Source: Terriglobia bacterium (GTDB lineage: Bacteria > Acidobacteriota > Terriglobia > Versatilivoradales > Versatilivoraceae). Taken from it: a stretch of DNA of 64,000 nt. The notes below the pieces were generated by a model that saw nothing but the letters and a program-made list of their open reading frames with translations, made no database searches and was not told the origin of the DNA. A program made the position numbers and the translations under genes. Positions 4,008 through 38,655 of this stretch are shown here, piece by piece; position 1 is the stretch's first letter; each line of letters begins with the position of its first letter. Where the stretch lies: NCBI GenBank assembly GCA_965215235.1, contig OZ244053.1:2471192-2535191 (forward strand). The letters run 5' to 3'.

Positions 4008-5840
4008 ATGACAAGTATGAAAAGACGGACCGCGGGTTACCTGTCGTTCAAGTGGCGACAGATGCTGATCTTCGTGGCAGCGGCTCTATGGATGGGCAAT
4101 TTCGGGCCACCGCGTCTCCCGGCTCAGCAGTCGGGCAAGAGTCCCAACGTCAGCCCGCAGCCCAAAGCGATTTACCTGACCGATCTTGAGAGATGCCAAC
4201 CGGCTTCCGCTTTGGCCCGGGAATGGACGCACGGTACTTGGCGCTTGCTCAGTTACGAAACCGAGTCTTTCAGTGGAAACCTGCTGTTGGCAACCGAAGA
4301 CAGCCGCGCTCCTGAGGTGACCTACCCGCTGCAGCAGGACGGTTGGCATGAAATCTATATCGGTATCTACCGCAAGCCCTTTACCGCTCCCAAACAAGTG
4401 CGGGTCCGTTTGAGCAACCATGTGGCCTACACCACCTTGAGGGGGCGTGAGGGCGCCAAGGATCATCAAGAGCACTGGATCGACGAAGTTTTCTGGAAGG
4501 CGGCCGATCTCACGGGAAAGGGAATGGTTTTCAAGCAGATCACCGAGCCGACCGTGGAGCACGCCTGGGTGGCCTTCATCAAGCTGGTGCCGCTGTCGGC
4601 GCAGCAAGTGAAATCGGTAGAGGACGACCGGCGGCGCTCCGACACCAAGCGGCTGTTTATCCATAATGACGCTGGGGTCATCAATCGGAGCGGGACCGAG
4701 CAGGAGATTCGCGATGTGCTCGAACCGCTGCGTCATTCCGACGTTTCCCGAGTTTACTGGGAAGGGGGCACGGGAGACCGGGCCAAGCGTTTTTCCAAAA
4801 TCGCCAGGGATCACTCATTGGAATTGACGGAGCCACTGACGGGTCGGCCGTTCTTTACCAGTCCTTACGGCCGGTGGTGGGCGGAGAGTTGGCGCGCCTA
4901 CCATCGGACCGGGGTGGACCCCTTCAGGATTGCCGCTGAATATGCGCACCAATTGGGACTTGAGTTTCACGCTGCCTACCGGCCGGGCGGCTTCATCTAC
5001 CCGCCGCCCAGTCCTCCCCTTCCCGGCCGAAGTTTTTATGAGCAGCATCCTGAACTCGTGTGCTTGTCTCGAGACGGCAAGCCGTTACCCCGTATTTCCT
5101 ATGCGTTCCCTGAAACCAGGCGGTACGTCCTGTCGCTGTTTCGTGAAATGGCGACCGACTATCCCATCGACGGAGTGGCAGTCCTCTACAATCGCCGCCC
5201 GCCGCTGGTGGCCTATGAGGCTCCGGTGGTTCAGGGATTTCAGGAAAAGTTCGGCAGGGACCCCCGCGAGCTTCCGGAAACGGATCCTCGCTGGTTGCGC
5301 TACCGCTCGCAGTTCCTGACTCAATTCATGAGAGAACTGCGCAGCGAGCTCGATCAGGTGGGCCGGGAGATGAAGCGGGAGAAGCGCCTCGAAATCACAG
5401 CCGTCGTTTCCAGGGGCGAGGAAAATCTGCTGTATGGGATGGACCTGGCGACCTGGATCAGCGAAGGTCTGGTGGATATGATCATTCCTTACTCCTCAGC
5501 CGTACGCCTGGGCGCCTATGAACCGATGTGGGAAAATCCCGAAGACGTCGACTGGTTTGTCTCCTTGGTGAAGGGAACCCGGACCCGACTGGCCTTGAAC
5601 CTCTTACCTCGGGACCTGACGGCGGAGGAATACTACCAGAAGGCGCACACTCTCTACCAAGCCGGAGTGGAGAACCTGTTCTTCTGGGACGGGACCCATC
5701 GGGTGCGGAAGGTCCTGCGACTGGGGCACCGTGAAGAAGTAGCGGCCTGGATGGCGTCCGGCCAGCCGCCGCGCCGGCCTTCCGCCGTTCGTGTATGGAA
5801 CCTCGGAGGCTGGAACTTGCGCCTGGAAACTCCGGGGTAG
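4008..5840 (+). CDS. Secreted hypothetical protein (signal/TM N-terminus 'MTSMKRRTAGYLSFKWRQMLIFVAAALWMG')
   Basis: Long ORF with AAGGAGG 7 nt upstream of the ATG at 4008. Good codon periodicity. No family recognised with confidence; it sits next to the sialidase-like gene. Confidence 0.55.
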   Translation: MTSMKRRTAGYLSFKWRQMLIFVAAALWMGNFGPPRLPAQQSGKSPNVSPQPKAIYLTDLERCQPASALAREWTHGTWRLLSYETESFSGNLLLATEDSRAPEVTYPLQQDGWHEIYIGIYRKPFTAPKQVRVRLSNHVAYTTLRGREGAKDHQEHWIDEVFWKAADLTGKGMVFKQITEPTVEHAWVAFIKLVPLSAQQVKSVEDDRRRSDTKRLFIHNDAGVINRSGTEQEIRDVLEPLRHSDVSRVYWEGGTGDRAKRFSKIARDHSLELTEPLTGRPFFTSPYGRWWAESWRAYHRTGVDPFRIAAEYAHQLGLEFHAAYRPGGFIYPPPSPPLPGRSFYEQHPELVCLSRDGKPLPRISYAFPETRRYVLSLFREMATDYPIDGVAVLYNRRPPLVAYEAPVVQGFQEKFGRDPRELPETDPRWLRYRSQFLTQFMRELRSELDQVGREMKREKRLEITAVVSRGEENLLYGMDLATWISEGLVDMIIPYSSAVRLGAYEPMWENPEDVDWFVSLVKGTRTRLALNLLPRDLTAEEYYQKAHTLYQAGVENLFFWDGTHRVRKVLRLGHREEVAAWMASGQPPRRPSAVRVWNLGGWNLRLETPG

Positions 5841-6029
5841 CCCGGCGGCTCCGCCGGGGCGCAGATACTGCCAACAGACCCCGGTCGGGCACAAAAGGCT
5901 CCCCGCCGTCTGGCTGTGGCAGTGAGCCTTTGATGGTGCAGAAGTGGGGTCAGGTTAACGCACCCATCTATCCGCTTTTAAAGTCAACTCCGCGCTCCAC
6001 GATAAACACCCTGCTTGGTCAATCGAGGT

Positions 6030-6403
6030 AAATCCCGGACCCCACCAGGATCGGTGCTCCGTAGGCCGTCACCCGCTTGACGAAGCCGATCTTGCGCTGC
6101 CAATTTCCTGTCACGGGATCAATCGCATTGTAGTGGAAAGAGGTCTCGCCGAACGTCATGGCCATGCTGATGACATCTCGGCCACTGAGAAACGTGGCGG
6201 GATCTGGCCCCCCCCCACTCGAGAAAGCTGGCTCCGTTGACGTTGCTTCGGTTTCCGGAGAACAGTTGGTTCCCTATCTGGTTCATGCCGAACAACCTGA
6301 CTGATAGGCATTGGGAACGAGTGTGGAACACCTTCTTGAAGAACCCGTTCCCAGAGCCGGCTAGGGCGTCGGTCCATCCTGCGTCCGGGGGACCTCGGGC
6401 CAT
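6030..6403 (-). pseudogene. C-terminal gene fragment interrupted by a C9 homopolymer (unknown family)
   Basis: Minus-strand translations on both sides of the 9-C run (6213-6221) join into a plausible about 150 aa C-terminal fragment '...FLEWGG/PDPATFLSGRDVISMAMTFGETSFHYNAIDPVTGNWQRKIGFVKRVTAYGAPILVGSGIYLD'. Confidence 0.2.
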
Positions 6404-6531
6404 AGGCCCGTGCGCGAGGTGGCGCAGATCGGGTTAAGGGCGATTGGCGGAGACGGAGATGGGATTGTCCCGTTGCCGTGGCAGTGGTAACATTCTACGA
6501 ACTCGAACACTGAGGATGAGGTGAAGGAGGC

Positions 6532-7581
6532 TTGAAGATGTCCGGCTCCAGCCGCAGATCGCTTCTCAGGAACGTTGGCCTGATCGCAGGGGCCATGGCT
6601 GTGGACTCCCCGATGGCCGCGTTTGCCCGGCCGAGACCCGGAGATTTGCCGGACATGGACCGGCTCAGAGAGCGCATTCAGGGAGTCCATGGCTTCATGG
6701 TCACGCCCTTTCAGCGCAATGGCCGGTTAGACGCCGATGGTCTGCGCCGCAACGTTGCCCACCATGCAGAGGCCGGGGCTCGAGACATGACGATCGTCGT
6801 GGGCGGTGGAATGGGCGAAATTTTCTCCCTGGACCTGGAAGAGCACAAGGCCATGGCGGTTGCTGCAGCGAGGGGCGCACAAGGGAAGCTTCCGGTAGTG
6901 GTCGGAGCTTGCGGTGGCTACCAAATGGCCAAGATCATGGCGCGCAACGCGGAGCAGGCGGGCGCCGATGCGATTCTCTTGTTTGCCCCGCCTTACTGGA
7001 ACTGGATTCCGGGATACGATGAGGGCGCCATTCGGTATTTCACCGAGGTGGCTGGGTCGATAAACATCGGCGTGTTGCTGGCGACGGTCTCCGGTCACAA
7101 CTTTCCGACGGGCAAGGAGCAGTATTGGCCGAAGGTTTTGAGCAAGCTAGCCGAGCTTCCCAACGTCATTGGGTTCGAGGATTCCAGCGGCGGCGTCGCC
7201 ATGGGGCAGCAGCTCGGGCCTCTGGTTGCCGACCGTTTGGTCTGGGTCGCCCGGGGTGAGGGTCATGCGGTTCGAGCGCTGCCCGCCGGGGCCCGCGGGA
7301 ACACTTCAGCGGTCGCCACTTTTGTCCCTGGGGCCTGCCGGGAGTTTTGGAGGCAGGGAAGGCTTGGGGAAGTTGCCCGGATGAAGGAAATCCTGGAGAC
7401 GCGGATCCATCCCATGGCTCGGGTGAGAGCGGTAAAGCCGGGCTACCACGTGAGCGGGATCAAGGTTGCCTTGGAAGCATTGGGCCGAGCCGGCGGTCCG
7501 GTCAGGCCCCCGGGAAGACCCGTCTCGACCGAGGATCGTCCCAGGATCGCTACTATCGCCCGCAAATATGCCGAGACTTGA
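6532..7581 (+). CDS. DapA/NAL-family (dihydrodipicolinate synthase-like) protein with twin-arginine signal peptide
   Basis: N-terminal 'SRRSLLRNVGLIAGAMA' Tat motif. The core resembles class I aldolase DapA family (GGGMGEIFSL, PVVVGACGG, FAPPYW, NVIGFEDSSGG). The usual Schiff-base Lys position appears to be F/E. Confidence 0.5.
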   Translation: MKMSGSSRRSLLRNVGLIAGAMAVDSPMAAFARPRPGDLPDMDRLRERIQGVHGFMVTPFQRNGRLDADGLRRNVAHHAEAGARDMTIVVGGGMGEIFSLDLEEHKAMAVAAARGAQGKLPVVVGACGGYQMAKIMARNAEQAGADAILLFAPPYWNWIPGYDEGAIRYFTEVAGSINIGVLLATVSGHNFPTGKEQYWPKVLSKLAELPNVIGFEDSSGGVAMGQQLGPLVADRLVWVARGEGHAVRALPAGARGNTSAVATFVPGACREFWRQGRLGEVARMKEILETRIHPMARVRAVKPGYHVSGIKVALEALGRAGGPVRPPGRPVSTEDRPRIATIARKYAET

Positions 7582-7619: not shown

Positions 7620-9605
7620 ATGAACTGGATATCTCCTGAAGCCAAAAAATCAAGCGTCGGGGTTGATAGTGCTTCCCGGAGTAGCCTCGTCATCCTGGTC
7701 TCGACACTGCTTGCCTTCCTGTTGCCTGCTCATTTCATAGCCCAGGAAACTTCGTCTGCGATGCCAACGGAACCGGAAGTCGACTGGATCTTTCCCCTGG
7801 GAGGTCAGCCGGGCGGTCACTGGCAAGCGGAAGTTGAGGGCCGGTTGCTGGACGAAGTCCATGGGGTCTGGTTCCCCAACCAGGGCCTGAAGGGTAAGAT
7901 ACTGGAAGTTCGAGAGCTGCTGACCGAAGAGAAGAAGACTGAACCGGATGAGTCCGGGGCCGAGGAAAAGCCGCGGACTCAGCGAGTCTCACTCCATCTG
8001 GAAATCGATCCGACGGTCCGGTCAGGGATCCATTCGCTGCGACTGGTGTCGAAACGGGGGGTTTCTAATTCCTTGACCTTTCTGGTCAGTTCGGAACCCG
8101 TCATCAAAGAGTCCAAGAGCGCCCATCAGAAGCCCTCCGAGGCGCAGGCGGTCAAGCACCCGGTCATCATCAACGGCAGGATTGCCCAAACGGGCGAGGT
8201 GGATTACTACGCTGTCGCGGTTTCTGCCCGGGAAGAACTTTCTTTCGAACTCTTCACTCCAGCCGAGACCTTTCGACCCACCATCAGGCTGTACGAGGAA
8301 AGGGGAAGCTGGTTGAGGGGGGATGAGCCCAGCCAACTGGAGTTCAGTTATCGGGATGACTATCGATCGTCTCGGGGGAAGCGGTGGCGTCATCGCTTCA
8401 GCCGGGCCGGGCGTTATCTGATTGCCCTGGGGTCCGTCTACGGTAAGGCTGAGCCTGGCTTTATCTACCAGCTTCGAATCGTGTCTGCTGAACGATCGTC
8501 GGCAAAAGGGGAATGGCCCGGTTCCGAGGGACAGGCCCAATGGAGCGAACGGCAGTATGTTCGAAAACTGACGCCGCTCAGGTTGCAGCAGCTCTGGTCG
8601 CGCACCGTCAAAGCCCCCCGGAATCTTCCTCGGGCCAAGGTCACCCAAAGGTCGGCAAATCAGCCTGAGGAGAACGCTGCCAAGCAAGACGTTTCCAATC
8701 CTGGTTCTGATAACGGCAATTCGTCGCCAACGGTCTCCGCAGAAAAAGAACCCAATGGAGAACGCACGCAAGCCCTGACGGTATCGCTGCCCGCTCTCGT
8801 CCGGGGCAGGATCGAAGCTCCCGGGGACGTCGATCTCTTTCAGTTCCAACTGCCGGCGAGACAGTCTCTGGTTTTTGAAGTGGAGACTCCCTATGTGTCG
8901 CCGCCCAGCTTCAGTCCCAGCGTCAAGGTCCTGGACTCTGAGGGTCACGAGCTGTTCAACAACAAGCACAGGAAGATTGCCCTGACCCGGCAAGATCCCA
9001 TCTTTCTGGTGGAGCTTCTCAAGCTTCATCTTCCTGACAGGGGAAGCTGCGGCGTGGGATCCGTTTCCTTTTTTGAGTCGTTGGAAGCTAAAATGGTGGC
9101 CGACTTCGCGGTTGCCGGACAGTACTACCTGCAGATCGGTGACGTCACCTCTCAAAAAGGCCACCCGGACTATGCCTATCGGGTCATGGTTCGACCGCGG
9201 ATTCCTCATGTGGGAGAGCTGGAGCTTGAGGGGGACCGCATCAACCTCCGGCAAGGGGAGGTCAAGAAGCTGAAGATCACCACGGGCTTGGAAGAAGGCT
9301 ATGCCGGCGACGTTGCCCTGAGTCTTGAGGGCCTCCCGCCAGGAGTGGTCCCTTTGACCGGTATGGAAGTGGAGCCCGGAAGCCCGATCGGTCCCACCAC
9401 TGACGGACAGGAAAAATTTCTGGCCTTCACCGAAAAAGCCATCATCTTGTTGCGCGCCGAGGAGAATGCGCCGCTGACTGAAACACCGGTGCTGATCCGG
9501 GTATGGGCGCGGCCTGCCATGAAAAATGAGTTGGGGGCCAAGCTGCTGGTCGGCGAGATTCCGCTCATGGTCATCATCTCCCGGGATCAACCCCAAGAAT
9601 CCTGA
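7620..9605 (+). CDS. Secreted hypothetical protein with two pre-peptidase C-terminal (PPC)-like domains
   Basis: N-terminal TM/signal sequence. Segments 'INGRIAQTGEVDYYAVAVSAREELSFEL' and 'LVRGRIEAPGDVDLFQFQLPARQSLVFEV' match the PPC-domain pattern. Confidence 0.5.
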   Translation: MNWISPEAKKSSVGVDSASRSSLVILVSTLLAFLLPAHFIAQETSSAMPTEPEVDWIFPLGGQPGGHWQAEVEGRLLDEVHGVWFPNQGLKGKILEVRELLTEEKKTEPDESGAEEKPRTQRVSLHLEIDPTVRSGIHSLRLVSKRGVSNSLTFLVSSEPVIKESKSAHQKPSEAQAVKHPVIINGRIAQTGEVDYYAVAVSAREELSFELFTPAETFRPTIRLYEERGSWLRGDEPSQLEFSYRDDYRSSRGKRWRHRFSRAGRYLIALGSVYGKAEPGFIYQLRIVSAERSSAKGEWPGSEGQAQWSERQYVRKLTPLRLQQLWSRTVKAPRNLPRAKVTQRSANQPEENAAKQDVSNPGSDNGNSSPTVSAEKEPNGERTQALTVSLPALVRGRIEAPGDVDLFQFQLPARQSLVFEVETPYVSPPSFSPSVKVLDSEGHELFNNKHRKIALTRQDPIFLVELLKLHLPDRGSCGVGSVSFFESLEAKMVADFAVAGQYYLQIGDVTSQKGHPDYAYRVMVRPRIPHVGELELEGDRINLRQGEVKKLKITTGLEEGYAGDVALSLEGLPPGVVPLTGMEVEPGSPIGPTTDGQEKFLAFTEKAIILLRAEENAPLTETPVLIRVWARPAMKNELGAKLLVGEIPLMVIISRDQPQES

Positions 9606-25554: not shown

Positions 25555-27600
<2,046 letters not shown>

Positions 27601-27676
27601 AGAACAAGACGACAGCTTGAAACTTCAACTGGCTAGACTTATAATCTAGCCAAATTCATCCTGGGTGGAGGCGAGT

Positions 27677-27931
27677 ATGACCGATTGGCCGTTGCAAGAT
27701 GCCAAGAACCGTTTCAGCGCCGTTGTGGATGCCGCTCTCGCCGGGAGCCCGCAGCGGGTGACTCGACGGGGCAAACCCGCCGTGGTCATTCTGGCGGTGG
27801 ATGAGTACGAGCGTCTGCGCAATGCAAAGAGGGCGAACGCGCCGACACTTGCGGATTTGCTCCTCTCCATCCCCCAAGACGACAAAGAGTTCGAACGGCT
27901 TCGACTTCCGACCAGACGGGCCGATTTCTGA
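27677..27931 (+). CDS. vapB: Phd/YefM-family antitoxin
   Basis: 'MTDWPLQDAKNRFSAVVDAALAGSPQRVTRRGKPAVVILAVDEYERL' with GGAGG 7 nt upstream. Stop overlaps the vapC start. Confidence 0.75.
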   Translation: MTDWPLQDAKNRFSAVVDAALAGSPQRVTRRGKPAVVILAVDEYERLRNAKRANAPTLADLLLSIPQDDKEFERLRLPTRRADF

Positions 27932-28344
27932 TGTTTCTGATCGATACCGACGTACTATCGGCGCTCCGGAGGCGGAAGCGCAACCCCGATGTCGTCCGAT
28001 GGATGGAAGCTCAACGTACGTCGGACCTGTACATCAGCGTGGTGACCGTTGGCGAGATAGAGCGTGGAGTCGCACGGCAGCAGAGCCGCGACCGGACGTT
28101 CGCGCTGACGCTGGCCGCTTGGCTGGACGGTGTGCTGTCGCTGTACGGTGACCGCGTTCTCGGCGTTGACGTCTCCACGGCGCGCCGCTGGGGCCAACTG
28201 TCCGGCTCGCTTGGACACGAAAGCGCAGACTTGCTGATCGCCGCCACGGCGCTCGAACACGGTTTGACCCTGGTGACCCGGAATGTCGGGCGCTTCGAGC
28301 CGACGGGCGTCCCTGTGCTCAACCCGTTCACTGTTGAAGTATGA
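27931..28344 (+). CDS. vapC: VapC PIN-domain toxin
   Basis: 'MFLIDTDVLSALRR...' PIN domain with conserved D residues, 137 aa. Confidence 0.8.
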   Translation: MFLIDTDVLSALRRRKRNPDVVRWMEAQRTSDLYISVVTVGEIERGVARQQSRDRTFALTLAAWLDGVLSLYGDRVLGVDVSTARRWGQLSGSLGHESADLLIAATALEHGLTLVTRNVGRFEPTGVPVLNPFTVEV

Positions 28345-28382
28345 TTCACGATGCCTCAAATCGGCCGTTGGGAGGACGCACG

Positions 28383-28694
28383 ATGATCCCGGCAGTTGCC
28401 GAGCACGCCGCTGAACTGGAGTCGATCTGCCAACGCTACAGCGTGGCGCGGCTTGACCTGTTCGGCTCGGCGGCCACCGGCAAGTATCGACCGGAGGACA
28501 GCGACCTGGACTTTCTGGTGGAGTTCCAGGAGTTGCCCGCCGGAGGCCACGCAAGCGTCTATTTTGGCTTGCTGAAGTCCCTGGAGCGGCTCTTCTTTGG
28601 GCGGCCCGTGGACCTGGTGGTGGAATCGGCCATCAAGAACCCCTATTTCCGGGAATCGGTTGAAGAAACCAGGGTGATGATTTATGCGGCGTGA
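28383..28694 (+). CDS. MNT-type nucleotidyltransferase antitoxin (HepT/MNT module)
   Basis: 'LDLFGSAATGKYRPEDSDLDFLVEF' minimal nucleotidyltransferase motif (GS...D.D). GGGAGG upstream of ATG 28383. Confidence 0.7.
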   Translation: MIPAVAEHAAELESICQRYSVARLDLFGSAATGKYRPEDSDLDFLVEFQELPAGGHASVYFGLLKSLERLFFGRPVDLVVESAIKNPYFRESVEETRVMIYAA

Positions 28695-28965
28695 AGCCGG
28701 AAAATACCTATGGGACATACAGCGCGCCATCGGTTTGATCCAGGACTTTACCGATGGCAAGACCTTTGCCGACTACCAGTCCGACGTCATGATGCGCTCT
28801 GCTGTAGAACGGCAGTTTGAAATCATCGGTGAGGCCATGACCCAACTGGCAAAACTTGCCCCGGCCCTCGCCTCCCGGATAAGCGAATGTGAGCGGATTA
28901 TCGCTTTCCGCAACGTCCTGATTCACGTCTACGCTGATGTGGATGACATACGGTATGGGATGTAG
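28684..28965 (+). CDS. HepT (DUF86) toxin
   Basis: 'RNVLIHVY' R(x4)HxY motif. Overlaps the MNT gene by 11 nt. Confidence 0.7.
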   Translation: MRREAGKYLWDIQRAIGLIQDFTDGKTFADYQSDVMMRSAVERQFEIIGEAMTQLAKLAPALASRISECERIIAFRNVLIHVYADVDDIRYGM

Positions 28966-29020
28966 TGGAGAACAATCCGCCAACCCTCAGCCGCGAGATT
29001 GACGCCCTTCTGGAGGAAGA

Positions 29021-29266
29021 ATGACCGTCCAAGAACTTACCCGGTTGCTGGCAACCTATCCACCCGGCTTGCGCGTGGTCGTGAGCGGCTATGAAGAGGG
29101 CTACGACGACCTGTCGCCAGAACAGATATCGGTGGTGAAGATTTGCCTGAACACCGGGACCGAGTCCTGGGTGGGACAGCACGAAGAGCCAAACCTTCTG
29201 ACGGGAGGACTGCCCGACGACGCTGAGATCGTCGAGGCACTAAGTTTACGGCGAGTCTCTAATTGA
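29021..29266 (+). CDS. Hypothetical small protein (81 aa)
   Basis: ORF with GGAGGAAGAATG start context. No family recognised. Confidence 0.35.
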   Translation: MTVQELTRLLATYPPGLRVVVSGYEEGYDDLSPEQISVVKICLNTGTESWVGQHEEPNLLTGGLPDDAEIVEALSLRRVSN

Positions 29267-29270
29267 TGAA

Positions 29271-29379
29271 GATGACCCTCCTCACTGCCCAGTGGCGGGA
29301 GCAGCAGACAGAAGCCGTGAGGCTCAGTGCCGCCATTGCGGTCAATCTTAAGAGCCTTACCTTTGGAAAGCTCTGTTGA
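29271..29379 (+). pseudogene. Duplicated, diverged hsdM 3'-end remnant ('[37 protein letters not shown]')
   Basis: Aligns with the real hsdM C-terminus at 27496-27600 ('[34 protein letters not shown]'). The 20-nt 'CCCAGTGGCGGGAGCAGCAG' is identical. Confidence 0.65.
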
Positions 29380-29388
29380 GGACTACGC

Positions 29389-30396
29389 ATGAGCTCGGAA
29401 TTTCAAAAGCGGTTGACCCTCTTAAATGCCGATTACGAGCGTGTCGCTGGTTCTCCCTGTCGCCGTTTCTTTTGTCCAATTCTTTACAGGGACGAGGACA
29501 CTGAACTATGCCGCGCCCACGTGATCAATAGGTCATTCCGGAACTCTGACCGCTCGTGGACCATCCAACGGGCCGATGTCGATGCCTACTACGGCAGCCT
29601 GTTCGAAGCGGAGTTCCTGGCCATGCAGGAAAAAGACCGTCACCAAGCGGATGAAGCTCTGGCTGACAAAGACCTTGTTCGACAGCTAAAGCCGAAGATC
29701 GTCTTGGACGGTGAAGAAGTAGATTACTATTTCCCCCAAGGCCACGTGCCACCGGAGCATTCGGAGGCGACGTTATTCGCCTCAGGAAAAACTGCTCGAT
29801 TGGCACTTAAGCTACCACCAGCCGATATGCTGACCGTTCCAGATGGGAAATTAGAGATTCACATTGATAGGAATCTCCAACTCCCAGCGCTGGCATCACT
29901 TCTCAAGGTCGCGCACCTAACCCTGTTTCATCTGCTTGGATACCGATATGCGCTGTCGGCTAGTGGGCACTTTCTTGGCAAGACCGTGTTAGGTGATTTC
30001 TTTCTAAAGACTCAGAGCATGGGTCGGGCCTCTGTTCTTGTTCAGGCTGAGAGTCACTTTCAAGAATTCACCAACATGGTCCGTCCAATTCTCTCAATGT
30101 CGCCGTATTCTCAGGGCACTTTGACAGATCATTTTCTCTACCTCTGCATGAGAGGAAGTCAACCTTGGGCTCTTCAAGTCCTGATCCGAACCGCTGACCA
30201 CTTGTACGCTGTGATGGTACCCATCATAGACGAGAGCGAAGCGGCCGTTCGGTTTGTCGATTTCCTTAAATCGTCCTCCTCAGAGATTGAGATGAAGCTT
30301 GCTCGATGGAAAGGAGATGCTTGGGAGGTTTCTCCGAAATCGGAGATGCACGTTTGGCCGGAAGCGCTGTTCGATGCTGAATTGCCGACAACCTAA
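29389..30396 (+). CDS. Hypothetical protein (335 aa) embedded between hsdM and hsdS; N-terminal Cys/His cluster 'CRRFFCPILYRDEDTELCRAHVINRS'
   Basis: Strong ORF, lower GC than surroundings, start context 'GAGGACTACGCATG'. No recognised domain beyond a weak HNH-like C...C...C..H spacing. Confidence 0.6.
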   Translation: MSSEFQKRLTLLNADYERVAGSPCRRFFCPILYRDEDTELCRAHVINRSFRNSDRSWTIQRADVDAYYGSLFEAEFLAMQEKDRHQADEALADKDLVRQLKPKIVLDGEEVDYYFPQGHVPPEHSEATLFASGKTARLALKLPPADMLTVPDGKLEIHIDRNLQLPALASLLKVAHLTLFHLLGYRYALSASGHFLGKTVLGDFFLKTQSMGRASVLVQAESHFQEFTNMVRPILSMSPYSQGTLTDHFLYLCMRGSQPWALQVLIRTADHLYAVMVPIIDESEAAVRFVDFLKSSSSEIEMKLARWKGDAWEVSPKSEMHVWPEALFDAELPTT

Positions 30397-30407
30397 GGAG
30401 CTCGGGT

Positions 30408-31709
30408 ATGACGGGTGAGTGGCGCAAGGTGACGCTGGGCAGTGTGATTGACCTTAAACTCAGCAGTGTGGACAAGAAGTCGAAAGAAAGTGAGCGCTCT
30501 GTCCGTCTTTGCAACTACACGGATGTGTACAACAACAACTTTATTCATGGTGCCCTCGACTTCATGGCGGCAACCGCGACTGAGCGAGAGATCGCAAATT
30601 GCACACTGAAGGCTGGAGATGTTGTCATTACGAAAGATTCCGAAAAACATGACGACATCGGTGTTCCTGCACTGGTCCGAGAAGACATATCCAATCTGGT
30701 GTGTGGCTATCACTTGGCAATTCTTCGACCCTCCTCATCAGAAATTGACGGGGCCTATTTGTTTTACGCGCTGAGTGCGAGGGCAATGCAAGAACAGTTC
30801 CATTCATATGCAAACGGTGTTACTCGATTTGGATTGCGGAAGGCTGACATCGGTCTCGTTGAAGTCCCCCTTCCTCCCCTCCCCGAACAGCGTGCCATCG
30901 CCCACATCCTCGGTACGCTGGACGACAAGATCGAACTGAACCGGCGGATGAACGAGACGCTGGAAGAGATGGCGCGGGCGTTGTTCAAGTCCTGGTTCGT
31001 GGACTTCGATCCCGTCCGAGCCAAGATGGAGGGCCGCGACACGGGCCTGCCGCCGGACATCGCCGCCCTCTTCCCCGACCGCCTCGTGGACTCGGAACTG
31101 GGGGACATCCCGGAGGGGTGGGAGGTGAAGGCGCTACCTGAGACGATTGAAATCAACCCAGCACGGTCGCTACAAAAGGGTGAGGTTGCCCCATATCTCG
31201 ACATGGCGAATATGCCAACGAAGGGTCATACCCCCAATGCAGTGACTGCACGGCCCTTTGGCTCGGGTATGCGTTTTATCAACGGAGATACGCTTGTTGC
31301 ACGTATAACGCCGTGTCTTGAGAACGGCAAGACAGCCTACGTCGACTTCCTACAGGATGGCGAGGTCGGATGGGGGTCAACCGAGTATATCGTCATGAGA
31401 CCCAAACCTCCGCTCCCTGATGAGTTCGCATACTGTCTTGCGCGTAGTGTTGATTTCCGCGAGTTTGCAGTTCAGAACATGACCGGGACGAGCGGGCGGC
31501 AACGTGTCCCTGCCACCGCCATGTCAAACTACCAACTACCGCTTCCCGGTGGATTTGAGATCACGGAAGTATTTGGAGAGCTAGTTGAGCCTCTTTTTTC
31601 GCTTGCTTCTCAGAAAGCAGAGGAATCCCGTACCCTCGCCGCGTTGCGGGATACACTGCTGCCGAAGCTGGTGTCGGGGGAGTTATGGGTCGGGGATGTG
31701 AATAGTTAA
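30408..31709 (+). CDS. hsdS: Type I restriction-modification specificity subunit HsdS (two target recognition domains)
   Basis: Conserved central and C-terminal coiled-coil 'LPPLPEQRAIAHILGTLDDKIELNRRMNETLEEMARALFKSWFVDFDP' and '...LRDTLLPKLVSGEL'. Two variable TRDs. Confidence 0.85.
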   Translation: MTGEWRKVTLGSVIDLKLSSVDKKSKESERSVRLCNYTDVYNNNFIHGALDFMAATATEREIANCTLKAGDVVITKDSEKHDDIGVPALVREDISNLVCGYHLAILRPSSSEIDGAYLFYALSARAMQEQFHSYANGVTRFGLRKADIGLVEVPLPPLPEQRAIAHILGTLDDKIELNRRMNETLEEMARALFKSWFVDFDPVRAKMEGRDTGLPPDIAALFPDRLVDSELGDIPEGWEVKALPETIEINPARSLQKGEVAPYLDMANMPTKGHTPNAVTARPFGSGMRFINGDTLVARITPCLENGKTAYVDFLQDGEVGWGSTEYIVMRPKPPLPDEFAYCLARSVDFREFAVQNMTGTSGRQRVPATAMSNYQLPLPGGFEITEVFGELVEPLFSLASQKAEESRTLAALRDTLLPKLVSGELWVGDVNS

Positions 31710-31712
31710 CCA

Positions 31713-33002
31713 ATGGTCAGAACCTCTATGTATGAAGCTAATCGGCCCGTTCCCCTCGGAGAAATGGAGATCGAGTTCGTCATCGATGGACGATCCGTCC
31801 GAGCTCGGGCGAGAGCCGTCGAATACCTGCTCCCCCATCCGATCCTTGCCTTGGAGGTAAGCGATGTTCCTCGGGAACCTTGGTCTGTTGAGCCTGCGGC
31901 TGAACGGCCCAACGTCAAGATATTAAGCGCTCCCGTGATGTCTGAAGGACCTTCAGGTATCACCTTGGAGAATGGCATACAATTGGATGTACTTCCTTTT
32001 TCGTGGGCAGCTACTCAGCGGGATGCCACCCTCTACCTCGCGCAATCACCTTCTGTTGTCTTACAGACGGGCAGTCGCCTCGAGTCTTTACAATTCAATA
32101 TCCTCAACTTTTCGAGGGATTTGCCTTTCGGAACAGTTGCCTTAAACGCTGATCCATGGGCGATAACCATCTACTCGGTTCCAAGTCTTAACAAACTCAA
32201 GGAAACACTCAGAGCTGATGGAGGATACGCTGTCACTCATAACGGGGTAATCAAACTTCGGGGTGACGACACATTCTCTGTCGAAGAAGTTATGGATCTA
32301 CTCTATGGGTTGGATGATTTCCTTTCATTTGTGTGTGGATCCTACTGTTCGCTAACCAATGTGGTTGGCATTGAAAGTGAGGATAATGAAGCCTGGAAAC
32401 GATGGGGATCACATCATGTATCGTCGTGGGGTCACCACCGGTCTTGGTTTGACATTACTGTCGGTGGTGCGCTTTTGGAAATCTTTCCGGTCTTCTGGCA
32501 GGAGTACAAGAAAAACACGAAAACTCTGAGTAGGGTTTTGAAATTGTACGCACATAGCAACGAGACCTTTTCCATAGATGTGAGTTGTATTCTCAGCCAG
32601 ACTGCCCTTGAAATGCTTTCCTACCTAACGGTCGGTAGCCAGACAAACCAAGAAAAACCTGGTCAGTGGATAGAGAGAGCTCTCAATCAGGCTGGAATTC
32701 CCTTCGTAATTTCTCCCCAATGCAAGGATTTGGAGGGGTTCCGCCAGCAAAATCGGCTGACGCATGGGCCACACGCATTAGTTGAGATTCGGAACTCAAT
32801 CATTCACCGCAATGCAGGGCATGGCGATATTCCCTTCGATGTGTATCGCGAAGGGTCCCAACTGGGACTGTGGTACATAGAACTAATGCTATTGCAAAGA
32901 TTTGGTTATACGGGTAAATACGCAAATCGTCTGGAACCGGTGGGATTTGCTGGCCGTACCGAGCCTGTTCCATGGGTATCAGGCCAAGGAGTCAACCCAT
33001 GA
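31713..33002 (+). CDS. Hypothetical protein (429 aa) embedded between hsdS and hsdR
   Basis: Strong ORF starting 4 nt after the hsdS stop, low GC. No Walker A, so not PrrC-like. Its stop overlaps an hsdR-start remnant (ATGA). Confidence 0.6.
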   Translation: MVRTSMYEANRPVPLGEMEIEFVIDGRSVRARARAVEYLLPHPILALEVSDVPREPWSVEPAAERPNVKILSAPVMSEGPSGITLENGIQLDVLPFSWAATQRDATLYLAQSPSVVLQTGSRLESLQFNILNFSRDLPFGTVALNADPWAITIYSVPSLNKLKETLRADGGYAVTHNGVIKLRGDDTFSVEEVMDLLYGLDDFLSFVCGSYCSLTNVVGIESEDNEAWKRWGSHHVSSWGHHRSWFDITVGGALLEIFPVFWQEYKKNTKTLSRVLKLYAHSNETFSIDVSCILSQTALEMLSYLTVGSQTNQEKPGQWIERALNQAGIPFVISPQCKDLEGFRQQNRLTHGPHALVEIRNSIIHRNAGHGDIPFDVYREGSQLGLWYIELMLLQRFGYTGKYANRLEPVGFAGRTEPVPWVSGQGVNP

Positions 33003-33049
33003 CCACCATCACCAAGGCCGACGCCAAGCAGGCCGCCCCTGGACCCTGA
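32999..33049 (+). pseudogene. hsdR 5'-end remnant 1 ('MTTITKADAKQAAPGP*')
   Basis: 'ATGACCACCATCACCAAGGCCGACGCCAAGCAGGCC' parallels the real hsdR start 'ATGACCACCCTCACCGAAGCCGACGTCGAGCAAGCGGCC' at 35527. Confidence 0.55.
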
Positions 33050-33060
33050 GAGTGTGAGCG

Positions 33061-33612
33061 TTGAGCAGCCGCTACGACCCGGAATGCCATCACCGGCGCT
33101 CCATCCGGCTGAAGGGGTACGACTACACACAGCCGGGTACCTATTTCGTCACTCTATGCACACGCGACCGCAAGTTTCTGTTCGGTGATATCGTGAACGG
33201 CGCAATGTGTTTGAACGATGCAGGGAGACTGATCGCCGATGCGTGGAAATGGCTGTCGATTCAGTACCCTTACGTGATGTTGGACGAATACGTCGTCATG
33301 CCTAATCATCTGCACGGCATCATTGTGATCGCCGACCATCGTAGGGGCGGTTCGCGAACCGCCCCTACCCCTATCCGTCGTAAGCCCTTGGGAGGTCTCA
33401 TAGGCGCATTCAAAACCACCGCAGCCAAGCACGTCAACCGTATCCGTAATACGCCCAATCAACCCATTTGGCAGCGCAACTATTACGAGCGCGTCATTCG
33501 AAATGAGAACGAACTGGACCGGGTTCGGGAGTACATAATCAGCAATCCAGCGCGGTGGGCTTTCGATTCCGAGAACCCGCTGGCCGCAATGCCCAAGGAA
33601 AAGGACGCATGA
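33061..33612 (+). mobile_element. REP-associated tyrosine transposase (RAYT; IS200/IS605 Y1 transposase-like)
   Basis: 'GTYFVTLCTRDR', 'MPNHLHGIIVI' (HuH motif) and 'QRNYYERVIRNE' (catalytic Tyr region). 183 aa, typical RAYT size. Confidence 0.8.
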
Positions 33613-33677
33613 CCACCCTCACCGAAGCCGATGCGCTCATCGCGCTGGAGAAGCGCCGGATAGATGCGACCGAATGA
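33609..33677 (+). pseudogene. hsdR 5'-end remnant 2 ('[22 protein letters not shown]')
   Basis: First 24 nt match the real hsdR start. ATGA overlap with the RAYT stop. Confidence 0.55.
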
Positions 33678-33822
33678 GATTACCCGGACTTCGGCGGACC
33701 GGTCACAGTTCCGTTGGTCTCGATCGACGGGCTCGAATCATTCCTTCTTGATCTGCGCCGGGCGCGGACCGACCTCGACAAGGGCACCTGCCCAAACCGC
33801 GGCCGGCAGGTCGTAGTCCCTC

Positions 33823-34047
33823 GTGCGGCTGGATTTTGGTGGCACGCCACATCGCAACCCGGACGGGGAGCAAGCCGGGTCACCGCGCCTCCATCTTTAC
33901 CGCGAGGAATTTGGCGATAAGTGGGCGTTTACCGTCCCGAGCGACCGATTCACGAACTTGGACGATCCATGGCAAACGCTTGAAGACTTCATGCGGTTCT
34001 GCAACATCGTCGAACTGCCCGTCATCCGGAAGGGGCTGTTCACATGA
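33823..34047 (+). CDS. Hypothetical small protein (74 aa)
   Basis: ORF whose stop overlaps the next gene's start (ATGA). Confidence 0.25.
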
Positions 34048-34808
34048 TCGGAGAAATTCAATCGCTGCTGGATCAGTATTGGATCTGGTTGCGGGACAGG
34101 ACCAGCCTTCGCCAGATCGATGACTGGACAGAAATTACTACACCGTACCTGGACCGACACAACGACTGCCTCCAGATCTACGCTAAACGCGACAACGGAG
34201 GGTTCGTGCTGACGGACGACGGTTACGTTCTCGAAGATCTGGAGCAGTCCGGCTGCAAGATCGACAGCGCCAAGCGCCAAGCATTGTTCAGGACGACGCT
34301 CAACGGTTTCGGCGTGAAGGTCAACGAGAAGGCGCTCGAAGTGCGGGCGTCGCCGGACAATTTCGCGCTGCGAAAGCACAATCTTGTGCAGGCGATGCTC
34401 GCCGTCAACGATCTCTTCTACTTGGCATCGTCCACAATCGCCAGCTTGTTCCATGAAGACGTGGTGGCTTGGCTCGATCTCTCCGACATCCGGTATACGC
34501 CCAGCGTGAAGTTCACGGGCAAGAGCGGCTATGATCATCGATTCGATTTCGTCATACCGAAGTCGAGAGTCCAGCCGGAGCGTGTACTGCGCGCCATCAA
34601 CCGCCCGAGCCGTGACACCGCGCAGGCGATGGCGTTCTCCTGGGTCGACATCAGGGAGGTGCGTTCTCTGGAATCCCGCGCCTATGCGATCCTGAACGAC
34701 TCGGACCAACCAATCTCGGCGAGCGTGCTGGACGCGATGCGCAGCTACGACGTGCATCCGGTCCCATGGTCGGGCCGAGATGAAGCGCGCGAGGAACTCG
34801 CCGCGTGA
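34044..34808 (+). CDS. DUF1828/DUF1829-like hypothetical protein
   Basis: '[39 protein letters not shown]' resembles the DUF1828 N-terminal signature. The C-terminal half is DUF1829-like. This is a family call from memory. Confidence 0.45.
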
Positions 34809-35502
34809 TTCCTTCCCGGGTGATGGAATCCGAAGTTGAAGACGCCGCCCCGCCTAGCTGGAGAGCTTGGGCTGGTGCGTCTGCACAGACAGCCCGGTTG
34901 TTCAATCTGTCTGCCCTGGCCTCGCCTTTCCAACTCAGCCGCCTTACCATCGGGGACTACATTGGATTGCTGGAGCGCCTGTTTCTTATCGACCGGCTCC
35001 CGCCGTGGCGCGGCAACCGGCTGAGTCGTCTGGTCAAAACCCCAAAGCTCCACGTCGGCGACACCGGACTCGGGTGTGCTCTGATTGGGTGTAACCCCGG
35101 CGCTCTGGCCCAGGATCGCCACTCTTGGGGCAGTTTCTGGAAACTTTCGTGTTTCAGGAATTGAAGCGGCAGGCCATCTGCCAGGAGCAACCCCTATCGT
35201 TTTATCACTACCGCGACAAGGATCAGGTGGAAGTTGACATTGTCATCGAGCGGGGAGCAACATCTGTAGCCGGCGTTGAGGTGAAAGCCTCCGCCACGGT
35301 AACCACGTCCGATTTTCGGGGCCTCCATAAATTGAAGAGAGTCACCAGCGAGAGGTTCGCTTCCGGGGTGATACTCTACGACGGCGAGATAGCCTCCAGC
35401 TTCGGCGGCCAGATGTTCGCCGTGCCGATTCGATCCCTGTGTGAAGGCCGGAGCGTTAGGCCAGGCTCATTCCTCCCGGGAGGGGACCGGTTGGCGCCGT
35501 AG
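34805..35502 (+). pseudogene. DUF4143/AAA-ATPase family C-terminal fragment (N-terminal ATPase domain missing; internal frameshift at about 35120)
   Basis: 'LTIGDYIGLLERLFLIDRLPPWRGNRLSRLVKTPKLHVGDTGLGCALIG' and 'FLETFVFQELKRQA...YHYRDKDQVEVDIVIERG' are the DUF4143 C-terminal region split across two frames. No Walker A portion is present. Confidence 0.6.
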
Positions 35503-35526
35503 TTCATCGGCTCTCTGAGATTTACT

Positions 35527-38500
35527 ATGACCACCCTCACCGAAGCCGACGTCGAGCAAGCGGCCCTGGACTGGCTGGAGGGCCTCGGCTGGCGGCTGGC
35601 CCGCGGGCCGGATATCGCCCCCGATACTCTTGCCGCGGAGCGCACCGACTACGGGCAAGTGGTGTTGGAGCGGCGGCTGCGGGATGCCCTGGCCGAGTTG
35701 AATCCCGATCTCCCCGCCGGGGCGCTGGACGACGCCTTTCGCAGGTTGACCCGCCCGGAGGGGGCGACGCTGGAAGCCCGCAACCGCGCCTTTCACCGGA
35801 TGCTGGTGGAGGGTGTGACGGTCGAATACCGCACCGATGCCGGCGCAATCCGCGGGGCGCAGGCGCGGGTCATCGACTTCGAAGATTCTAGCAACAACGA
35901 CTGGCTGGCGGTCAACCAGTTCACCGTCAGCGAGAGCAGGAACACCCGCAGGCCCGACGTCGTGCTGTTTGTCAACGGTCTGCCCCTGGGCGTCATCGAG
36001 CTCAAGAACCCGGCGGACGAAGACGCCACCCTCTGGACCGCTTGGCAACAACTACAGACCTACAAGGTCGAGTTGCCTTCGCTGTTCTCCATGAACGAGC
36101 TGCTCATCGTCTCCGACGGGACGCAGGCCCGCATCGGCACGCTCACCGCCGGGCGGGAGTGGTTCAAGCCCTGGCGCACCATATCGGGCGAAGCTCTGGC
36201 CGACCCGCACATGCCCGAACTCCAGGTGATGCTGGAAGGCGTCTGCGCTCACGAGCGGTTCCTGGCTATCGCCCGCGACTTCACCGTGTTCGAGGACGGC
36301 GGCGGCGGGGCGCTGGTCAAGAAGATGACCGGCTATCACCAGTTCCACGCGGTGCGGGTGGCGGTGGCGGAGACTTTGCGGGCATCCGAGTTACAGCGCA
36401 TCGCCGATAAGTCCGGCAGATACGAGTCGGGCCGCAAGCCGGGCGGCGACCCGGGCGACCACCGCATCGGCGTGGTCTGGCACACTCAGGGATCGGGCAA
36501 GAGCCTGACCATGGCCTTCTACGCCGGAGCCATCATCCGCGAGCCGGCCATGGAGAACCCCACCATCGTCGTGCTGACCGACCGCAACGACCTGGACGAT
36601 CAGCTTTTCGGTACCTTCTCCCGCTGCCAGGACCTCTTGCGCCAGCCACCCGTGCAGGCCGAGAGCCGGGCCGACCTGCGCCGCAAGCTCGCCGTCGCAT
36701 CGGGCGGCGTGGTGTTCACCACCATCCAGAAGTTCTTCCCCGAGGAGACAGGAGATATCTACCCTGCACTCTCCAACCGTCGCAACGTCGTGGTCATTGC
36801 CGACGAGGCCCATCGCAGCCAGTACGACTTCATCGACGGGTTCGCGCGCCACATGCGCGACGCGCTGCCGCATGCCTCCTTCGTTGGTTTCACCGGCACG
36901 CCGATCGAATTGCGGGACGCCAACACCCGGGCCGTGTTCGGCGACTACATCAGCATCTACGACGTCCGGCGTTCGGTCGAGGACGGGGCCACGGTGCCCA
37001 TCCACTACGAGAGCCGTCTTGCCAGGCTGGCCCTGGACGAGAGCGAACGACCGACCATCGACACGGAGTTCGAGGAGGCCACCGAGGGCGAGGAGGTGGA
37101 GCGCAAGGAGAAGCTCAAGATCAGATGGGCGCAACTGGAGGCCGTCGTCGGCGCGGAGAAGCGGCTGAAGCGGGTGGCCGAGGATATCGCGGCCCATTTC
37201 GAGAAAAGGCTCGAAGTCCTTGACGGCAAGGCGATGGTGGCGTGCATGAGTCGGCGCATCTGCGTCGAGTTGTACCGGGAGCTCGTCCGATTGCGTCCCG
37301 ACTGGCGCGACGAGGACGACGACAGGGGAAGCATCAAGGTGGTGATGACCGGCGCCGCCTCCGACCCGCCTGAGTGGCAGGCGCACATCCGCAACAAACC
37401 GCGGCGTGAGGCTCTGGCGAAACGTTTCCGAGACCCCGAAGACCCGCTCCGGGTCGTGCTGGTGCGCGACATGTGGCTGACCGGCTTCGATGCGCCCAGC
37501 CTGCACACCATGTACGTGGACAAGCCGATGCGCGGTCACGGGCTGATGCAGGCCATCGCCCGGGTCAACCGGGTGTTTCGGGACAAGCCGGGCGGTCTGG
37601 TGGTGGATTACCTCGGCTTGGCTCCTGAATTGAAACGCGCGCTGGCGACTTACACCGAAAGCGGCGGCGCGGGCCGAACAGCCCTCGATCAGTCGGAGGC
37701 GGTGGCGGTGATGATCGAGAAGTACGAAATCTGCCGCGGCCTGTTCCACGGCTTCGACTGGTCGAAGTGGATCGCCGGCGCGCCGGTGGAGCGGCTGGGC
37801 CTGCTGCCGGCCGCGCAAGAGCACGTCCTGGCGCAGGAGAACGGCAAGGATCGTTGCCTGCACGCAGTGCGCGAACTGTCTCAAGCCTTCGCGCTGGCCG
37901 TCCCGCACGAGGACGCGCTGCGCATCCGCGACGACGTGGCCTTCTTTCAGGCAGTGAGCGGCAGCCTCGCCAAACGCGCTCCCGGTGAGACGCGGCCCGA
38001 AGAAGAGTTGGACCATGCGCTGCGCCAGATTGTCTCGCGCGCGGTGGCCTCCGAAGGCGTCATCGACATTTTCGCCGCCGCCGGGCTGAAGAAGCCCGAC
38101 ATCTCGATCCTCTCCGATGACTTCCTGGCCGAGGTGCGCGGCATTCCCCAGCCCAACCTGGCCGTCGAGCTGCTGCGGAAGCTGCTGAGGGGCGAGCTGG
38201 CTGCGCGCCGAAAGAAGAACGTCGTCCAGGCGAGATCTTTCGCCGAGATGCTGGAGCAAGCCCTCCGCCGCTATCAGAACCGCGCCGTCGAAGCTGCGCA
38301 GGTGATCGAAGAGTTGATCCAACTGGCCCGGGACCTCCGCGAGGCCAACGCCCGCGGCGAAGAGCTCGGGCTGTCGGAAGACGAGCTGGCTTTCTACGAC
38401 GCGCTGGAGACCAACGACAGCGCGGTCCGGGTGCTCGGCGATGAAACGCTCCGCGCCATCGCCCGCCAACTGGTTGAAACCGTCCGCAACAACGTCACCG

Positions 38501-38655
38501 TCGACTGGACGCTGCGCGAGAACGTGCGCGCCCACCTCCGCGTACTGGTCAAGCGCATACTGCGCAAGCACGGCTACCCGCCGGACAAGCAGGAGAAAGC
38601 AACGCTGACCGTTCTGGAGCAAGCCGAGGCCCTGTCCGCCGGCTGGGCTGTCTGA
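35527..38655 (+). CDS. hsdR: Type I restriction enzyme R subunit HsdR
   Basis: '[22 protein letters not shown]' N-terminus. SF2 helicase motifs ([26 protein letters not shown]). 1042 aa. Confidence 0.9.

Follow-up and report, generated by a model that had tools for sequence, protein, structure and literature searches.

A YopA-family gene for a predicted HEPN ribonuclease in the hsdS-hsdR gap of a Terriglobia Type I restriction-modification locus

The window analyzed here, a stretch of 64,000 nucleotides (nt) from a Terriglobia bacterium (Acidobacteriota; GenBank assembly GCA_965215235.1, contig OZ244053.1, positions 2,471,192 to 2,535,191 of the forward strand), contains a Type I restriction-modification (R-M) locus in which a gene for a protein of 429 amino acids (aa) lies between hsdS and hsdR. 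The new data indicate that this gene encodes a member of the YopA family, a HEPN enzyme that is predicted from its sequence to cut RNA and to be toxic. The available evidence is most compatible with a model, to which we assign a probability of about 0.6, in which the product is a single-chain, ApeA-like HEPN endoribonuclease that serves as an autonomous abortive-infection cassette in the hsdS-hsdR gap. The preliminary description of the gene, made from the DNA letters, had proposed a candidate novel effector linked to R-M. The linkage is upheld within the gene's own clade, and the novelty was overstated, since the family is already present in Pfam as YopA_M and YopA_C and R-M operons with embedded HEPN genes have been described before. 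Judged by their domain content, the genes that flank the 429-aa gene form a genuine Type I R-M system:

31713..33002, + strand: YopA-family HEPN gene, 429 aa (open reading frame, 94 homologues, homology to YopA of phage SPbeta, AlphaFold2 model; alternative start at 31728)
25555..27600, + strand: hsdM with an inserted DUF559 domain (Pfam HsdM_N, N6_Mtase, DUF559)
30408..31709, + strand: hsdS, specificity subunit (Pfam Methylase_S, 2.1e-20)
35527..38655, + strand: intact hsdR, 1042 aa (Pfam HSDR_N, SWI2_SNF2, T1R_D3-like, T1RH-like_C)

An intact gene of a large family

The open reading frame (ORF) starts with ATG, translates without internal stops and lies on the same strand as the hsd genes. 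It is not a chance reading frame, since a word-index search returned 94 homologues (E-values down to 1e-162) and a HMMER profile search of 1.84 billion representatives, clustered at 50% identity, returned 4067 clusters at E <= 1e-3 and 2254 at E <= 1e-30, nearly all of them 410-470 aa long. All 94 homologues carry PF26308 (YopA_M) and nearly all carry PF27216 (YopA_C), as precomputed domains show for the identical public protein P0001 and nearly all of its relatives. In the public annotation, P0001 has 424 aa and starts at the second ATG (31728), and both starts are compatible with the alignments of homologue N-termini. Large proteins that clustered with the family were discarded as serine recombinases or as fusion artefacts from inserted mobile elements.

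The family takes its name from a phage gene. Specifically, a tblastn search of phage genomes gave yopA of Bacillus phage SPbeta, annotated there as "hypothetical protein", as its sole match (E 6e-17), and BLASTP aligned the 429-aa protein with SPbeta YopA at 28% identity over 333 residues (E 2e-28). SPbeta YopA is thus a true homologue that falls into the same length class and shares the motif and the conserved C-terminal tail; it differs in that its N-terminal ~110 residues remain unaligned and in that it is a stand-alone prophage gene outside any R-M operon. Searches of PADLOC, NCBIfam and PHROGs gave no match for the 429-aa protein, and a local Pfam copy, which lacks the YopA_M and YopA_C models, gave none for SPbeta YopA.

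Predicted active site and structure

The strongest indication of function comes from the pattern of conservation. In an alignment of 66 sequences, the only invariant columns are N132, E300, R360 and H365, and N361 is conserved in at least 90% of sequences. Three of these residues belong to the motif RNSIIH (R360-H365), which fits the HEPN consensus Rx4-6H with a polar residue after the arginine, and all 28 homologues with a mapped genomic context, SPbeta YopA (RNKIVH) among them, carry RNxxxH in the equivalent place. Rx4-6H is the metal-independent RNase site of catalytic HEPN domains (PMC3710099). An alternative reading would assign the domain a non-catalytic task, namely the binding of RNA or a nucleotide in order to regulate R-M, as in MtlR-type HEPN proteins. 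Some HEPN domains are indeed non-catalytic (PMC3710099), but such families lack Rx4-6H (PMC3710099), and with R, N and H invariant or nearly so in the present family this reading appears very improbable.

An AlphaFold2 model built on the alignment (predicted local distance difference test, pLDDT, 93.2; predicted template modelling score, pTM, 0.91) resolves a strand-only region (residues 13-155), an alpha/beta region (159-231) and a helical domain (253-396), which gives the following division of the gene:

31749..32177, + strand: N-terminal beta-rich region, residues 13-155, putative sensor
32178..32462, + strand: middle alpha/beta region, residues 156-250, corresponding to YopA_M and part of ApeA_NTD1 (sub-threshold ApeA_NTD1 match)
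32463..32912, + strand: C-terminal helical HEPN domain, residues 251-400
32790..32807, + strand: predicted catalytic motif RNSIIH, R360-H365, conserved in the 66-sequence alignment

The C-terminal domain of the model is an all-alpha helical bundle that resembles solved HEPN domains, with AbiA (8oz7, score 6.4), AF0298 (2hsb, 6.2), HepT (5yep, 5.8) and a HEPN toxin (7ae2, 5.5) as the leading matches, followed by other HEPN proteins (1wwp, 1jog, 8xdj and 1ufb, 5.0-5.5) and the HEPN domain of sacsin (3o10, 5.1). Foldseek searches with the model returned nothing significant from the PDB or from the BFVD viral models, and a PDB sequence search with the family profile, with the homologue P0084 and with SPbeta YopA gave only spurious matches and no detectable solved relative.

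Variability within the family is greatest in the N-terminal ~155 residues, with a mean pairwise identity of 0.30 compared with 0.38 in the HEPN region, as would be expected of a sensor. The best-conserved segment is the C-terminal tail (residues 401-422; 32913-32978), which has a mean pairwise identity of 0.54-0.68, follows the pattern Y-x-G-x-Y-A-x-R-L ... G-x-T-E-x-V-P-W and is modelled as two short strands.

A remote sister of ApeA

Among characterized proteins, the closest counterpart appears to be ApeA, a HEPN protein without an ATPase that cuts tRNAs in their anticodon loops and is activated via a pocket formed by its N-terminal and HEPN domains (10.64898/2026.01.26.701840). The only Pfam match of the 429-aa protein, which is below threshold, joins its residues 166-237 to positions 165-239 of ApeA_NTD1 (PF18862). 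Across the 66 relatives, HEPN_Apea (14 members) and ApeA_NTD1 (4 members) were likewise the commonest families, all below threshold, and one relative, P0084, combines both in co-linear order, with ApeA_NTD1 at residues 117-251 (24.3 bits) and HEPN_Apea at residues 359-431, the latter spanning RNSIIH. A second homologue search, seeded with a distant subgroup, returned members in which ApeA domains occur together with YopA_M and YopA_C; the source names in its output include "HEPN domain-containing protein", "ApeA N-terminal domain-containing" and "YopA central domain-containing protein". Five members (P0301, P0304, P0339, P0347 and P0350) exceed the gathering score of HEPN_Apea in the motif region (26.1-27.5 versus 24.4 bits) and P0329, whose matches to the two models are co-linear as in P0084, exceeds that of ApeA_NTD1 (25.7 versus 25.5 bits), while P0304 also aligns with the 429-aa protein itself (E 3e-24), with IRNSI(I/V)H in register.

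On the strength of these Pfam models and bridging siblings, the YopA family is read as a remote sister of ApeA with common middle and HEPN domains. Both are single ATPase-less polypeptides in which a non-catalytic N-terminal region precedes a C-terminal HEPN domain with RNxxxH, the motif being RNKITH in Ec1ApeA, RNKIVH in SPbeta YopA and RNSIIH here, and siblings from the YopA family pass each of the two Pfam ApeA models with co-linear matches. The differences are also substantial. ApeA has about 580-600 aa, so that the present protein is ~150 residues shorter; Pfam files it under the separate families YopA_M and YopA_C; and its N-terminus is beta-rich in the model, whereas cryo-EM work describes ApeA as a mainly helical protein that comprises a catenin-like N-domain, a Mid domain and a split HEPN domain (10.64898/2026.01.26.701840), a contrast drawn by comparing descriptions. 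ApeA, too, has been reported from within R-M operons, in epsilonproteobacteria (PMC3710099).

The position of the gene, furthermore, invites comparison with PrrC, the anticodon nuclease whose gene lies between hsdS and hsdR of the EcoprrI Type Ic locus, and with RloC. HEPN is the nuclease class of the PrrC/RloC C-terminal domain (PMC3710099), so that gene position (for PrrC) and a C-terminal HEPN-class RNase motif are shared. In contrast to PrrC and RloC, the 429-aa protein has no N-terminal ABC-ATPase: no Walker A pattern ([AG]xxxxGK[ST]) was found in it, in agreement with the preliminary description, scans of Pfam, NCBIfam and PADLOC detected neither an ATPase domain nor a match to PrrC or RloC models, and its N-terminus is modelled as beta-rich. 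The wider YopA family, moreover, is mostly not linked to R-M. The initial statement that the protein is not PrrC or RloC therefore stands at the level of family. It does not stand as an exclusion of an enzyme of anticodon-nuclease type, because the HEPN motif RNxxxH is present and ApeA is itself an ATPase-less anticodon nuclease.

HEPN genes of at least 16 clades have been described in R-M operons, with PrrC as the paradigm (PMC3710099). These include Abi2/AbiD/AbiF, EC042_2821, pEK499_p136-like, Ymh-paraMORC and others, for which a second line of defence has been proposed (Anantharaman et al. 2013); the theme is the same, but they belong to HEPN families other than YopA and have other partner domains. 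The main text of that survey makes no mention of YopA. DARNA/PD-T7-3 was considered and rejected, as its HEPN domain is N-terminal and its architecture different.

Coupling to the Type I operon

Both junctions of the gene are tight. The hsdS stop codon (TAA, 31707-31709) is followed by a spacer of 3 nt (CCA) and the ATG at 31713, or by one of 18 nt if translation starts at 31728, so that the ORF does begin directly after hsdS as originally noted. No convincing terminator was found between hsdS and the 429-aa gene, and the region has fewer terminator-like sites than chance alone would produce. At the other end, the TGA stop codon (33000-33002) overlaps an ATG (32999-33001) in the sequence ATGA, and this ATG opens a decayed HsdR N-terminus, which agrees with the remnant of an hsdR start suspected there. 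An independent repeat search found the same signal as one family (D1) with three hsdR-start copies, at 32995-33024, 33605-33634 and 35523-35552, the first two of which correspond to these features:

32999..33049, + strand: decayed hsdR 5' remnant, a 16-codon ORF reading MTTITKADAKQAAPGP up to its stop codon, which resembles the HsdR N-terminus at 35527
33609..33634, + strand: second hsdR 5' remnant, which matches the real hsdR start exactly over its first 23 nt

Between the 429-aa gene and hsdR, the window carries a RAYT-like gene (REP-associated tyrosine transposase; REP, repetitive extragenic palindromic) with its own hsdR-start copy, a DUF1828/DUF1829 gene and fragments of a DUF4143 domain:

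33061..33612, + strand: RAYT-like gene, second cargo (NCBIfam REP_Tyr_transpos 9.2e-18, below cut-off)
34044..34808, + strand: DUF1828/DUF1829 gene, third cargo, candidate defence gene PDC-M24B (Pfam 5e-32 and 2.5e-28; PADLOC 1.7e-105)

The genomic neighbourhoods of homologues (loci are designated L001 and so on) place this arrangement in a wider frame. A scan of species-representative genomes gave 23 loci, and a metagenome scan gave 5 distant ones. In tblastn searches with the window's Hsd proteins, seven loci (L001, L002, L004, L005, L010, L016 and L017) proved to hold a homologue in the same Type I system, with hsdM and hsdR 72-83% identical to those of the window and the homologue itself 32-54% identical. 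The homologue follows hsdS directly in L001, L002, L004, L005 and L037, with junctions that range from an 8-nt overlap to a 33-nt gap; in the metagenomic locus L037, it is 55% identical and overlaps hsdS by 4 nt. In L047, also metagenomic, it lies 5 nt upstream of an actual hsdR, which has one frameshift. In a neighbour-joining tree, seven of the eleven members of the window's clade occupy the Type I position between hsdS and hsdR (the window, L001, L002, L004, L005, L037 and L047), and the Type I-embedded members are spread across Terriglobia, Chloroflexota and Binatia.

Scanning for peptides that resemble the HsdR N-terminus revealed further traces of hsdR directly behind the homologue stop codons:

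L001, start 9269: remnant
L002, start 9290: remnant, 43 residues kept
L037, start 9308: remnant
L047, start 8290: HsdR N-terminus of the real hsdR

In addition, L048 retains a remnant of 33 residues (8275) in a locus without hsdR, L016 has a remnant as well, and vestiges are recognizable in L004 and L003. The suspicion that the gene was formerly translationally coupled to hsdR is thus supported, by the hsdR 5' fragments behind the homologues in L001, L002, L037, L048 and L016, by the vestiges and by the close spacing in L047. These traces show that the 429-aa gene and a piece of the hsdR 5' end move or persist as a unit, and that the gene was retained when later cargo inserted between it and hsdR. 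The remnants of the window, L001 and L037 are closer to one another than to the resident hsdR, and the three genes form one subclade in the neighbour-joining tree, which together suggests that separation from hsdR predates the divergence of these genes.

Behind each cargo gene in the gap, the first ~25-130 nt of hsdR recur as a copy, in many cases with an overlap of the ATGA type, as the RAYT-like stop codon in the window also exemplifies. Such copies start at 9269, 10934 and 12817 in L001, at 9290 and 10918 in L002, at 9308, 9777 and 11588 in L037 and at 8275 in L048. The pattern points to recombination at the hsdR 5' end as the way in which cassettes build up. In L037, the corresponding gap likewise holds a DUF1828 gene.

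The question arises whether the gene is such a passenger in its own right, i.e., an addiction or selfish cassette whose RNase mainly stabilizes the mobile cassette or the R-M locus by post-segregational killing, or simply cargo of a recombination hotspot, with little role in phage defence. The gap also holds the RAYT-like, DUF1828/1829 and DUF4143 sequences, the hsdM-hsdS gap holds PIN and MNT/HepT genes, and two cargo genes are each followed by an hsdR-start copy. Several homologues adjoin integrases, recombinases or transposases, and the base composition of the gene is foreign to the locus: its GC content is 0.494 overall and 0.491 at third codon positions (GC3), compared with a GC3 of 0.82 for hsdM and 0.86 for hsdR and a GC content of 0.59 for the whole window, which also bears out the low GC reported initially. 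However, no cognate antitoxin gene is conserved beside it: an all-versus-all clustering of neighbouring genes yielded no conserved partner other than hsd genes. With a large family, a full-length architecture that is conserved and defence neighbourhoods that recur, this explanation seems decidedly improbable.

Outside the Type I loci, the surroundings of intact clade members differ. In L046, the homologue follows an Eco57I/MmeI-like methylase and a PLD-SNF2 protein and precedes a SIR2 gene; in L048, it faces a Type ISP enzyme; in L038, GmrSD lies 2 kb away; and in L003, the homologue stands between a galactokinase-like gene and a sigma-70 gene. More distant relatives are mostly stand-alone genes of prophage, plasmids and defence islands. 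Some lie beside other R-M genes (L006, L007, L008, an E. coli IncY plasmid and a Planktothrix plasmid), and others have Hachiman and HEPN/MNT pairs, transposases with a TIR gene, or a PLD nuclease with a kinase as neighbours. SPbeta yopA is stand-alone beside HTH, RES-domain and superinfection-exclusion genes. The question whether orthologues are consistently adjacent to hsdR thus has a divided answer: in the window's clade they largely lie between hsdS and hsdR, but in the wider family they are mostly stand-alone.

Several homologues are split or truncated by insertions or frameshifted (L011, L017, L022, L015, L019 and L023). In L011, the halves at 5494-6012 and 8079-8966 are parted by an ORF of 587 aa, and in L017 the upstream part of a fused ORF (5211-7280) matches a large serine recombinase. 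Such disruptions may reflect selection against a toxic gene or assembly errors in metagenome-assembled genomes.

A model of autonomous abortive infection

By analogy with characterized HEPN enzymes, the protein would act as follows. The enzyme would stay latent until its own N-terminal and middle regions sense an infection cue. Two HEPN domains would dimerize into a composite, metal-independent RNase site, and the active enzyme would cut cellular or phage RNA, most likely the anticodon loops of tRNAs, as ApeA, PrrC and RloC do. Cleavage would in turn stop translation and abort the infection. As such, the gene would provide a second layer of defence that is co-expressed with R-M, and the R-M proteins would not be strictly needed to restrain it.

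The main competitor of this autonomous model is a guard in the manner of PrrC, in which physical association with the Type I R-M complex would keep the HEPN RNase inactive until a phage anti-restriction factor disables that complex and so frees the enzyme. The gene does occupy the position that prrC has between hsdS and hsdR (prr locus; PMC3710099), junctions with hsdS overlap or nearly overlap in six loci and ATGA overlaps with hsdR starts occur, most of the clade (7 of 11 members) resides in the same Type I family in three distant lineages, and even the copies that have "escaped" (L048, L016 and L003) still carry hsdR-start remnants. A guard of this kind nevertheless has to account for the absence of an ATPase regulatory domain, for intact copies with no Type I genes nearby (L003, L038, L046, L048, SPbeta yopA and the plasmid copies) and for the window, L001 and L037, in which coupling to hsdR was broken and the gene was kept. 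The divergence of the homologues (38-55% identity, versus 72-83% for hsdM/hsdR) gives no sign of tight co-evolution either, although this is not decisive.

The autonomous model is favoured because the family is mostly stand-alone and intact clade copies exist outside Type I loci (4 of the 11 members), and because the N-terminus is the most variable part of the protein and hsdR coupling is broken in three related loci; the PrrC-like guard is accordingly considered unlikely. A role in defence is further supported by the neighbours of the family, which include Type I, IIG and ISP R-M systems, GmrSD, Hachiman, SIR2, HEPN/MNT, TIR and the SPbeta region.

Several observations weigh against the autonomous, ApeA-like model. 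For the RNA target, dimerization and trigger, the model draws on analogy with ApeA, PrrC/RloC and HepT, and literature searches found nothing on the function of YopA. The neighbourhoods were mapped for 28 loci out of more than 4000 clusters, which is a small sample, and the strong ancestral coupling of the clade to hsdS and hsdR is compatible with control by the R-M complex as well. Kinship with ApeA is, moreover, faint in the protein itself: the ApeA_NTD1 match has an E-value of 0.0019, reaches 18.2 bits against a cut-off of 25.5 and covers 75 of 271 model positions, HEPN_Apea (PF18739) does not match the protein even at E <= 10, and the PADLOC ApeA model matches neither the protein nor the 66 relatives at E <= 0.1. 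Because both Pfam thresholds are missed, PADLOC recognizes no ApeA, and the protein is shorter with a beta-rich N-terminus, it is not an ApeA in the strict sense.

Implications

The findings draw attention to a family that comprises more than 4000 clusters at 50% identity and occurs in SPbeta, E. coli plasmids and many environmental phyla, with no assigned function found. Its catalytic HEPN domain and ApeA-like layout predict an infection-triggered RNase, probably directed against tRNA. What is already known is that the family is catalogued as Pfam YopA_M/YopA_C and that some members are publicly labelled HEPN- or ApeA-like; the sources searched describe no function of the YopA family, no ATPase-less clade in the PrrC position and no trail of hsdR-start remnants. 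The Type I-embedded clade offers a natural comparison of one effector with and without an R-M partner, and this comparison is relevant to the way in which R-M systems and abortive-infection nucleases combine into layers. The remnant trail, furthermore, suggests how accessory defence genes build up inside Type I operons. The 429-aa gene is thus a good, testable candidate defence gene and not a categorically new effector.

A bolder proposal would combine both aspects: the Type I-embedded YopA clade would be an ATPase-less analogue of PrrC that senses R-M integrity via its beta-rich N-terminus, and the hsdR 5' end would be a docking site at which defence cassettes, each consisting of a gene and an hsdR-start fragment, are stacked and exchanged between the Type I loci of distant phyla. 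In its entirety, this idea is speculative and rather doubtful.

Further genes of the locus

Additional features complete the picture of the Type I locus. Among the cargo in the hsdS-hsdR gap, the RAYT-like gene encodes an HxH-type motif (NHLHGI), and no REP-like inverted repeats were found in 29000-35700. The two ORFs at 34805-35502, on the 3' side of the DUF1828/1829 gene, jointly make up a frameshifted DUF4143 domain.

Directly 5' of hsdS lies an ORF of 335 aa (29389-30396, + strand), which has a GC3 of 0.55 and looks foreign to the locus; searches of Pfam, NCBIfam, PADLOC and PHROGs gave no match, and the related loci contain no homologue. A conserved upstream partner of ~330 aa was considered and rejected, as similar-sized upstream ORFs elsewhere are unrelated (galactokinase-like, HAD hydrolase and transposase).

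The hsdM-hsdS gap of the window contains a PIN-domain gene and an MNT/HepT pair (27931-28344, 28341-28694 and 28684-28965). As MNT/HepT consists of a nucleotidyltransferase and a HEPN toxin, the operon holds a second HEPN RNase. In L037, the same gap contains an NTase_sub_bind gene and a Polbeta-HsdS fusion.

In hsdM itself, an in-frame insertion of ~148 aa (residues ~405-552) carries the DUF559 domain, a Vsr/REase-like endonuclease (Pfam 4e-33); it is missing from the orthologues in L001, L002, L004, L005 and L037, which are 76-83% identical elsewhere. Directly after hsdM, a sigma-70-like promoter sequence gives a strong match, at 11 of 12 positions (27617-27645).

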